From NCBI GenBank assembly GCA_964016885.1, contig OZ024754.1, positions 30,070,001 through 30,134,000 of the forward strand: a stretch of 64,000 bases of DNA. The letters are read 5' to 3'. How positions within the stretch are numbered: the stretch's first letter is position 1; every line of letters begins with the position of its first letter. Below the pieces are notes generated by a model. That model had not been told where the DNA came from. It did not search any database and saw nothing but the letters and a program-made list of their open reading frames with translations. Source of the DNA: Eledone cirrhosa. Lineage: Eukaryota. Positions 5,226-56,048 of this stretch are shown here, piece by piece. Made by a program: the position numbers and the translations under genes.

Positions 5226-5626
5226 TTTCTTTATTAGCCACAAGGGCGCACAAGAAAGGGGGACAATACAAAGACATGCCGGGGATTTTACATGCTGTCG
5301 TGTAAAAAATATAAAAACAAACAATTACAACAATCGAAATCCCCAATAAGGGGGAGGCACCACAAATGGGTTGTTTAATACCCCGTCGATAGAACAACCC
5401 TCAACTCCAGGAGCGTGTTGTGCAAGTGCTCCTTTCTTCCTTTTGCTCTCTTCTTCAACCTACAGGCTTATAAACAGAGAAGGCCCAATCACTCGGGCCA
5501 TTTTCGCTTCATTCACCCACCTTTCAGTAAATTTACTGGGGTGCAGTGCCTCTCTCTCCACCCTGATTCTCCTTCTAAAGTGATACTTAAAGAAGGGAAT
5601 CAATTGTTGTCCGGAGAGAAAGGCAT
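5226..5626 (-). mobile_element. 5'-truncated L1/Tx1-like LINE 3' end
   Basis: Encodes AFLSGQQLIPFFKYHFRRRIRVEREALHPSKFTERWVN*, followed by a 3' UTR with AATAAA; near-identical second copy at 7672-8075. Confidence 0.6.
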
Positions 5627-8945: not shown

Positions 8946-9011
8946 TATTTTATCTGATGAAAGCGCACCATAGTTTGCTCTGGTGGCCCTTGAAATATGT
9001 ATAATGAAATA
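8946..9011 (+). ncRNA. type I hammerhead ribozyme, PLE pLTR family X
   Basis: TATTTTAT-CTGATGA-stem II (AAG..CACCA/TGGTG..CTT)-GAAA-TATGTA-TA-ATGAAATA; homologues at 51953 and 60585; abuts (TA)n. Confidence 0.8.
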
Positions 9012-12800: not shown

Positions 12801-13039
12801 TGGTAAATTGATTGCTTTCAGAAACAGAAATATATTTATCTTCTGACACACCGTGATGTAGTTATTGTTGTTGTTATTACATATTGTTTTCGATGATTCA
12901 GTTGTTGCTGTTGTTTGTTTGTTTTTGTTATGTTTTGTTCGTTTTTGTTGTTTTTGTGTGTTATTTTATATTTCTTCAAACGTATGATATTGATTGTATC
13001 AGGCAAATTATTAAAGCAGCGTTGTTTCTGAAAGGAATG

Positions 13040-13590
<551 letters not shown>

Positions 13591-14370: not shown

Positions 14371-14465
14371 ATAGGAAAAGTATGACCCCGACGGCAGAGC
14401 TCAAGTCGTTTCGACGGCCGTTTCGTCGAAACGGCTTGAGCTCTGCCGTCGGGGTCATACTTTTT

Positions 14466-14470
<5 letters not shown>
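14371..14470. mobile_element. fold-back copy of HHR family Z in (TA)n
   Basis: 100-bp palindrome ATAGGAAAAGTATGACCCCGACGGC...GCCGTCGGGGTCATACTTTTTCCTAT. Confidence 0.85.
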
Positions 14471-14612: not shown

Positions 14613-14698
<86 letters not shown>

Positions 14699-14700
<2 letters not shown>

Positions 14701-14821
14701 ACGAAGGAAATGTGGTAAGGAACCAGGTGGACCATAACGCACCAAAGTACTCAATACTTGGGGTAGTAGAGTGGGTAATAGGAACCAGTAAGACCCCATA
14801 CTTTGGGGTCTTACTGGTTCC

Positions 14822-14824
<3 letters not shown>
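14699..14824 (-). mobile_element. family Z 3' fragment with terminal fold-back
   Basis: Matches 17242-17340; hairpin TAGGAACCAGTAAGACCCC-ATACTTT-GGGGTCTTACTGGTTCCTA; (TA)n on both sides. Confidence 0.85.
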
Positions 14825-14886
<62 letters not shown>

Positions 14887-16895: not shown

Positions 16896-16944
<49 letters not shown>

Positions 16945-16948
<4 letters not shown>

Positions 16949-17337
16949 AAAAAGTATGACCCCGACGGCAGAGCTCAAGCCGTTTCGACGGCTATTTCTG
17001 GACTAACTTAGAATTTTTAGCCTGGTGAATAAATAGCCGAACTTGTCAAGGGGGTACTTCCTTATATGGGAAGATTGTAGTTGTCAAGAAGATTGGTTAA
17101 AATTTTAACCAATCTTCTTGACAACTACAATCTTCCCATATAAGGAAGTACCTCCTTGACAAGTTCGGCTATTTATTCACCAGGCTAAACATTCTAAGTT
17201 AGTCCAGAAATAGCCGTCGAAACGGCTTGAGATCTGCCGTCGTGGTCATACTTTTTCCTATTTCCCACTCTACTACCCTAAGTATTGAGTCATCGGGTGC
17301 GCTATGGTCCATCTGGTTCCTTACCACAATTCCTTTG

Positions 17338-17340
<3 letters not shown>
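16945..17340. mobile_element. longest family Z copy: about 315-bp spacerless palindrome plus an 80-bp tail, in (TA)n
   Basis: Arms 16945-17102 and 17103-17260 are nearly perfect complements. Confidence 0.9.
16959..17055 (-). ncRNA. hammerhead ribozyme with U3-A8 variant core and GUC site (family Z)
   Basis: CCCC-TTGACAA-G..CGGCTATTT/AAATAGCCG..C-GAAA-CGGC(ttgagctct)GCCG-TC-GGGG; mirror copy at 17150-17246 (+) has a damaged stem I. Confidence 0.75.
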
Positions 17341-18290: not shown

Positions 18291-18488
18291 GTATATATAT
18301 ATATAGCACCCCTTATTTTTCAATTATGACTGATAGCACCCCTTATTTTTCAATTATTTTTCAATGTTTATTTTTCAATGTTTATTCCTCAATATTTTTT
18401 ATATTTTTTATCTTTTATTATTTTTTATTCTTTATTTCTTCAATGTCTTGGATTTGTTATTGCTTGTGTGATATGTAATCAACCTTTA

Positions 18489-18534
18489 TGCTCTGATGAG
18501 TCCCACTTATAGTGCGGATGAAACAATGTTAGCA
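18489..18534 (+). ncRNA. minimal type I hammerhead ribozyme
   Basis: TGCT-CTGATGA-GTCCCACT/AGTGCGGAT-GAAA-CAATG-TT-AGCA, about 40 nt upstream of (TA)n. Confidence 0.8.
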
Positions 18535-18574
18535 AGTAAATATATGCATATGCCATAGGCGTTCTTTGTTATTG

Positions 18575-18884
<310 letters not shown>

Positions 18885-21382: not shown

Positions 21383-21453
21383 TATTTTATTATGCGCATT
21401 TCAAAAACAAACATCATCATGCAATAATATTTGTGTTTTCATCAGATAAAACA
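21383..21453 (-). ncRNA. minimal type I hammerhead ribozyme
   Basis: Reverse complement of 21572-21642. Confidence 0.75.
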
Positions 21454-53102: not shown

Positions 53103-53107
<5 letters not shown>

Positions 53108-53306
53108 AACGAGTAGGACCCCGACGGCTGAGCTCAAGCCGTTTCGACGGCTGATTCTGGACTAAATTTAGTCCAGAATTAGCCGTCGAAACGGCTTGAG
53201 CTCAGCCGTCGGGGTCCTACTCGTTCCTATTACCCACTCTACTACCCTAAGTATTGAGTACTTTGGTGCGTTATGGTCCACCTGGTTCCTTACCACATTT
53301 CTCCCG

Positions 53307-53310
<4 letters not shown>
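53103..53310. mobile_element. family Z fold-back plus tail in (TA)n
   Basis: Palindrome 53103-53231 centred on CTAAA|TTTAG. Confidence 0.88.
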
Positions 53311-55680: not shown

Positions 55681-55683
<3 letters not shown>

Positions 55684-55884
55684 CGAAGGATGTGGTAAGG
55701 AACTAGATGGACAATAACGCACCAGAGTACTCAATACTTAGGGTAGTAGAGTGGGTAATAGGAAAATGTTTGACCACGACGGCAGAGCTCAAGCCGTTTT
55801 GACGGCTATTTCTGGATTAAATAGAGTCCAGAAATAGCCGTCGAAACGGCTTGAACTCTGCCGTCGGGGTCAAACATTTTCCTA
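55681..55884. mobile_element. family Z tail plus fold-back in (TA)n
   Basis: Arms 55758-55817 and 55826-55884. Confidence 0.88.
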
Positions 55885-56048
55885 TATATATATATATGTG
55901 TGTGTGTATGAGTGTGTGTGTCTATATATATGTGTGTGTGTGTCTGTGTGTATATATATATATATATATATATTCCCCGTTTTTCTCATTTTTCTCCGTC
56001 CTTTCCTCTTCTCATCCATTATCTATCTATCTTCTATTTCTAACTCTA

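Follow-up and report, generated by a model that had tools for sequence, protein, structure and literature searches.

Penelope-like retroelements (PLEs) are described as elements that form partial tandems, have an inverted copy that is truncated and one arm with a tail, and insert into microsatellites, and the Neptune and Nematis PLEs are named as having a Zn-finger-like linker between RT and EN (PMC8557442). Hammerhead ribozymes of PLEs, including one with a U3:A8 core in the Schistosoma element Cercyon, were described by Cervera and de la Pena (2014, PMC4209133), who stated that in vivo evidence was absent; this core variant is active in vitro (PMC3088659). For Poseidon of Anolis carolinensis (PAc), cleavage was reported to be dispensable for insertion in vitro, and no RNA-seq reads were reported to end at the cut (Frangieh et al., 2024, PMC11167929). 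For the Penelope elements of Adineta vaga, self-priming on an antisense, unspliced template was favoured (Arkhipova et al., 2013, PMC3846280). None of the element type, the U3:A8 core and the inverted structure is new. The role of the PLE hammerhead in cells and the origin of the head-to-head inverted ends are left open in the available text of PMC4209133, PMC11167929, PMC3846280 and PMC8557442.

The repeat family analysed here (family Z) was compared with these systems. As proposed for family Z, the PAc tail is defined by two internal reverse transcription (RT) start sites, and PAc nicks both target strands and extends each of them; shared features are also the AT-richness of the targets and a hammerhead at the junction of the pseudo-LTR (pLTR) and the ORF. 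The tail of a family Z arm measures 78 nt, against 30-40 nt in PAc (PMC11167929). The inverted-junction map and the cap-derived G reported below for family Z are absent from the PAc results text (PMC11167929). The hammerheads of PMC4209133 share with family Z the type I fold, a short stem I, a long stem II, the G10.1-C11.1 pair, a palindromic sequence in loop III and paired motifs on opposite strands. Unlike these hammerheads as described, that of family Z closes a GAGCTC-containing loop with a stem III of 5-6 pairs, lacks an extra base between A9 and G10.1, and has a loop II of ~33 nt that holds the inferred transcription start. With such a stem III and loop, the family Z hammerhead could fold as a monomer.

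The Penelope element of Drosophila virilis likewise has an internal pLTR initiator promoter and inverted terminal copies (Schostak et al., 2008, PMC2377424), but its start is placed 5′ of an intron that ends next to helix I (PMC4209133), whereas the inferred start of family Z lies inside the ribozyme. The A. vaga elements share head-to-head inverted pLTRs, an optional tail and junction palindromes (PMC3846280); in family Z, the cap-like G together with a cut site on the sense strand point to a sense template. L1 shares the extra cap G at full-length 5′ ends and a second reverse transcription primed by the other target end, but L1 twin priming is described as copying non-overlapping parts of the RNA, whereas both family Z arms copy the same segment (PMC11702581). 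The HDV-like ribozyme of R2, like the predicted one of family Z, sets the 5′ end of the element RNA; the R2 cut frees a full-length RNA (PMC6765202), whereas in family Z no more than 98 nt of template would remain 5′ of the start sites after the cut.

Family Z is almost certainly the pLTR of a PLE. Long copies extend upstream into an ORF whose end is a GIY-YIG-like domain, which is how we read the YIG-type motif found at the end of the ORF, where the 3′ region follows directly (sampled stretches L003, L006, L014 and others). The C-terminal ORF piece gave a protein atlas lead (0.95) to a cluster with 23% PF01541, and a cysteine-rich linker is visible in the ORF, while searches with the ORF pieces gave no match in Pfam, in PDB or among longer proteins in a homologue search. 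Motifs in the L011 ORF, including YRDD, are presumably RT-like, and in the same stretch the +98 end runs directly into the ORF start, a partial tandem forming pseudo-LTRs. A boundary that had seemed to be shared at L008:665 was dropped, as it is merely the edge of the L008 copy. Open frames of other diverged Penelope-like ORFs flank family Z copies in L009, L014 and L022, representing nested insertions. A few low-depth contigs from two other organisms (runs X5 and X6) also matched the pLTR.

The copies were surveyed in 161 stretches totalling 1.664 Mb, composed of evenly spaced picks, the window (the whole 64-kb stretch of Eledone cirrhosa DNA under analysis) and its neighbours, from a genome of ~3 Gb. 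This sample contained 146 arms and 48 inverted pairs, 47 of which joined one tailed and one tailless arm. Positions are given in element coordinates on the element sense strand, where +1 is the first G following GCCGTC. The 3′ ends were fixed, falling at +18 to +22 in 54 of the 146 arms and at +96 to +98 in 60, and arms with either end (+20 or +98) were found inserted in (TA)n. The density of ~44 tailed arms per Mb suggests copies of the order of 10^5 genome-wide.

The copy under study occupies 14700-14824 of the window. Its perfect 20-bp inverted arms, at 14778-14797 and 14805-14824, are separated by the 7-nt filler ATACTTT (14798-14804), and they lengthen by one A-T pair to 21 bp around a 5-nt loop. 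The tailed arm (14700-14797) carries the element sense on the minus strand and spans +1 to +98, with 14700 as its +98 end; it belongs to subfamily SF2a and is tagged by CTTACTGG. The short inverted arm (14805-14824, plus strand) spans +1 to +20. The (TA)n target microsatellite adjoins both, on the left at 14616-14699 and on the right at 14825-14886. Both arms begin at +1 and neither holds family sequence from 5′ of it, which bears out the first-pass annotation, where both arms had been said to stop at the predicted GUC site without upstream sequence. Each arm, read in cDNA sense, continues with an A that is likely untemplated. The inner filler bases are those found immediately 3′ of the cut site in the sibling subfamily SF1, where the same 8-mer occurs at 14377 and 14456; this match may reflect chance or a templated insert. 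On balance, we consider 14700-14824 to be a 5′-truncated inverted PLE insertion whose arms start at the predicted hammerhead cut, both of them likely copied from a self-cleaved 3′ RNA fragment. Only one of the six family Z copies in the window ends at +1, so that a single copy is weak evidence by itself.

The 5′ ends of the other five copies lie further upstream. An SF1 palindrome at 14371-14470 has no tail, both of its arms end near +20, and its junction is at -29/-27. A second SF1 palindrome, at 16944-17340, has its junction at -142, so the whole hammerhead fits on both arms; a complete predicted type I hammerhead lies at 16960-17053 on the minus strand, with the predicted cut between 16964 and 16963. 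On the plus strand of the same copy, an initiator-like element in the hammerhead loop II occupies 17198-17207, in which the A at 17201 corresponds to -41, the inferred capped start. The remaining copies comprise a single SF2b arm on the plus strand from -42 to +20, preceded by slipped repeats (18654-18715), a palindromic copy with junction -45/-45 (53103-53310) and another with junction -45/-41 (55682-55885), in which an untemplated G at 55824 stands before the -41 A of the short arm. Elsewhere in the window, a long CAG/CAA trinucleotide tract covers 13000-13560.

Hammerhead ribozymes are recognised by a conserved core and three stems, and the sequence of family Z upstream of +1 very probably folds as one of type I. 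The copy at 16960-17053 presents stem I (CCCC/GGGG), the core UUGACAA, the G10.1-C11.1 pair, a 9-bp stem II, GAAA, stem III and GUC. The core takes the form UUGA-N-AA, at -86 or -84, in place of CUGAUGA, where N is C, U, G or A by subfamily; this core, GAAA and GUC are present in all subfamilies. Nearly all of the 100 SF3-pattern matches listed, in which C3 and G8 were allowed, carry U3:A8, and core position 7 also varies in independent Logan contigs from four runs. Ten copies from several subfamilies, mutually related, were aligned, and 93% of the alignment cells were paired overall (97.5%, 89% and 98% for stems I, II and III). Three compensatory, double-changed pairs were found, in stem II only. 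The covariation score was reached by none of 500 shuffles, and by two of five covariation measures the alignment was no better than shuffles. The hammerhead that had been proposed at GCCGUC/GGGGUC from the letters alone is thus supported by core, stems and covariation.

The unconstrained minimum-energy fold is a three-way junction in SF1 and SF2a, and no hammerhead fold was predicted for the single SF3 copies modelled. When 250 nt of upstream sequence are included, the prediction for stem I drops to 0.11 or lower in every subfamily. An Rfam scan at E<=1 gave 389 matches; the 150 listed contained no hammerhead and only low-complexity microRNA matches. The GAGCTC palindrome is kept in loop III of all subfamilies (e.g., window 16970-16977), where it is also a junction hotspot, and it could allow ribozyme dimers.

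Hammerhead-like motifs were also observed in other repeat families of the window. A minimal motif with the canonical CUGAUGA core occurs at 18485-18535 on the plus strand, with stem I TGCT/AGCA, stem II, GAAA and GUU. Further CUGA-N-GA...GAAA motifs occur at 8954, 21580 and 24579 on the plus strand and at 21445, 37319 and 60641 on the minus strand; those at 21445 and 21580 form an inverted pair and point towards each other. In L173, the minus arm of a family Z copy is chimeric, being SF2b upstream and SF1b-type around and after the cut site, which suggests a template switch between subfamily RNAs.

Junctions between inverted arms were then counted across the subfamilies; total counts were computed, while tallies inside pattern listings were made by hand on the 50-100 matches listed. 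For SF2a sites with identical 17-nt flanks, the gap between arms was 0-12 nt at 130 sites, 13-42 nt at 246, 43-72 nt at 1,467 and 73-102 nt at 2,838. The +1 class (gap 0-12 nt) therefore makes up 130 of 4,681 SF2a junctions (2.8%), and gaps of 0-1 nt about 2%. Among the 50 of 130 SF2a matches listed, the gap was 0 nt in 21, 1 in 16, 2 in one, 3 in eight, 5 in one and 6 in three. With the junction left free from about +8 to -3, it fell within 1 nt of the exact site in 64 of the 100 matches listed (out of 212), a clustering with a binomial p of 7e-30 against uniform, one site being counted in both orientations. Gaps of 0-1 nt accounted for 37/50 (SF2a), 33/50 (SF2b), 6/15 (SF1; 10/15 counting fillers) and 4/4 (SF3) of the 0-12 class among the matches listed.

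Relative to the 73-102 class, the +1 class amounts to 4.6% in SF2a, 6.8% in SF2b (71 vs 1,037), 1.25% in SF1 (15 vs 1,197) and 1.4% in SF3 (4 vs 278). The SF2a share exceeds that of SF1 3.7-fold (Fisher p 6e-8); the predicted stem III in short RNA is equal in the two (0.22), and the predicted stem I in read-through RNA is 0.96 in SF2a against 0.17 in SF1. The copy at 14700-14824 is the sole +1/+1 pair among the 48 inverted pairs of the sample, and ten +1 loci in (TA)n have unrelated flanks. Rather than spreading evenly, the junctions of this histogram, which had been suggested as a check alongside the first-pass annotation, peak at GUC|G. The peak is sharp, minor and present in four subfamilies, and its reality is virtually beyond doubt.

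The bases inserted at these junctions were also inspected. Among the matches listed, 13 of 16 one-base fillers at +1 were A or T where the template has C, which fits an uncapped RNA end with an added A, and the extra A stood on either arm about equally (7-8 vs 7). Some fillers repeat the sequence of their own arm, which suggests RT slippage or templated end-joining. As the source of the A/T fillers, CpG decay of the zero-gap form was rejected (2 vs 25), and so was microhomology as the cause of the +1 peak, given that the 6-nt palindrome at -8 to -3 gave 0/50 junctions among the matches listed. As counter-points, a CG overlap joining two -1 ends would also explain the zero-gap form, and a nearby 3-nt overlap gives 9/50 SF2b junctions among the matches listed. 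From the sequence evidence, we consider it probable that ribozyme cleavage causes the +1 peak.

The major stop is located near -41. The outermost end falls at -48 to -35 in 35 of the 48 inverted pairs of the 1.664-Mb sample, and the +1 junctions amount to about 1-7% of the number at the -35 to -45 stop. In the SF2a 73-102 class, no arm extends beyond -45, and the end of most longer ones is at -40 or -41 (50 matches listed). Logan contigs from four runs show a step in depth at about -48 to -25. At -41 all subfamilies have an A, set in TTAGT or TCAGT despite differing neighbours, a context which we take to resemble an initiator. At the 57 sites among the matches listed where both arms reach -41, 11 had a G on both arms, 15 a single C/G, three one G and one extended arm, and 28 had both arms extended to -42 to -45. 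No reference sequence has G at -42, although in SF2b a template could account for about six of the 15 single C/G fillers. At full-length L1 5′ junctions, the cap is marked by an extra G (PMC11702581). A capped transcription start at -41, inside the hammerhead loop II, is accordingly a reading that we hold with considerable confidence from these junctions. A splice acceptor at -39 (TTTAG/TCCAG) was rejected because genomic sequence continues in the arms as far as -41 to -45, and what is added is one G, not a common upstream exon. A second GUC at -40 to -38 was also rejected as the cause of the main stop, as arms run past it. In L223 (~5417-5452), two arms ending at -44 are joined by a long poly-T/poly-A filler.

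These results are consistent with a mechanism in which the element endonuclease would nick both target strands, and the 3′-OH of each strand would prime a cDNA from an internal start site, either +20 or +98. The two cDNAs would end at the same RNA 5′ terminus, in most cases the capped start and in some the ribozyme cut, and would be joined head to head by a template jump or by microhomology end-joining. Promoter-started RNA, capped at -41, would give the common stubs; it does not contain the 5′ half of the ribozyme, whose core lies at -86 to -84, and thus would not cut in cis. Read-through RNA holding the whole ribozyme would be cut at GUC/G, yielding the rarer stubs of 20+98 nt such as 14700-14824, and the cut would leave the RT start sites on the short 3′ fragment. 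The claim that self-cleaved 3′ RNA served as the template thus holds in part: the sharp junction peak at GUC/G speaks for it, but the class is a minority and most arms stop at -35 to -45. The two arms are usually in the same end class, which indicates one RNA end.

Two separately primed cDNAs are, in our judgement, the likely origin of the arms. The first-pass annotation had instead proposed that synthesis folded back at the RNA 5′ end, so that one cDNA would run to the cleaved end, fold back and copy itself as far as +20. Such a fold-back would also predict the strong correlation between the 5′ ends of the two arms seen in both classes, and junction palindromes of PLEs have been read as self-priming in published work (PMC3846280). 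However, zero- and one-base loops dominate (37/50 among the matches listed), the 21/50 zero-loop palindromes being hard to self-prime, and the extra A falls on either arm about equally. Furthermore, of 47 tail/short pairs, 22 have a tailless arm that extends 5′ beyond the tailed one by 3 nt or more, eight show the opposite and 17 agree within 2 nt, as judged from BLAST edges that are uncertain by a few nt; neither arm, therefore, appears to be copied from the other. Copies with two tailless arms (14371-14470) imply that +20 serves as an independent start site. For some copies a fold-back could be rescued by later asymmetric deletion, but this origin is disfavoured and we regard it as quite unlikely. 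That the copy at 14700-14824 is a chance truncation at +1, unrelated to the +1 class, is highly improbable: although its 7-nt filler exceeds every filler among the matches listed (50 of 130 SF2a sites) and resembles another subfamily, both arms end at +1 and then have A in cDNA sense, as in the filler-bearing members of the class.

The +1 class itself could be made without ribozyme cutting if RT, while copying uncut RNA, stalled at the 3′ foot of stem III. The foot of this hairpin lies 1-2 nt from the cut site and gives nearly the same address, PAc uses uncut RNA in vitro (PMC11167929), and SF2b combines the most stable predicted stem III (0.84) with the highest +1 share. Stem III stability does not, however, account for the difference between SF1 and SF2a, and an alternative hairpin at -29 to -16, favoured in short RNA (0.77), showed no symmetric stop in the 50 matches listed. 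Independent stalls predict about six +1/+1 sites, whereas ~100-130 were found against ~60 mixed sites, the latter being extrapolated by hand tally from ~12 of the 50 matches listed of 246. The fillers, moreover, start with A, where copying of C-1 would give G, and we consider stalling unlikely. Later central deletion of longer palindromes, by cruciform or slippage repair with microhomology, would be a further route to +1 palindromes, and natural palindromes or repeats do give peaks of similar size: TGAGCTCA is the centre in 9/50 of the matches listed of 246, and AGTATACT in 11/58 SF1 sites. Yet the overlap at +1 is at most 2 nt (CG), the 6-nt CAGCTG palindrome has no junctions in the same kind of tally (0/50 matches listed), many +1 junctions bear untemplated A/T or fillers without overlap, and SF1 and SF2a differ in +1 rate with near-identical local DNA. 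Deletion is, therefore, very unlikely as the source of the class, and ribozyme cleavage remains our preferred reading.

Thousands of independent insertions give two base-exact addresses, one cap-marked and one at the predicted cut, and both kinds of RNA end are likely preserved in this genome. The cap-marked class, which is dominant, tells at least as much as the +1 class. The junction histogram is applicable to any PLE-rich genome. In the literature searched, we found no PLE junction map with cap-marked and cut-site classes and no start inside a ribozyme; supplements and most subscription papers lay outside its scope, and a prior report is possible. Judged from sequence, a wider reading can be offered tentatively, at somewhat less than even likelihood: the ~10^5 mini-palindromes may form a fossil map of the 5′ ends of PLE RNA, in which a metazoan PLE hammerhead would cut in the germ line, both arms would derive from one sense, capped RNA by twin priming and not from self-priming on an antisense template, and the start in loop II would act as a switch. 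If this is true, promoter RNA would be immune to cleavage, while read-through RNA would be cut, severing the RT start sites from the ORF and thereby limiting full-length copying of the element.
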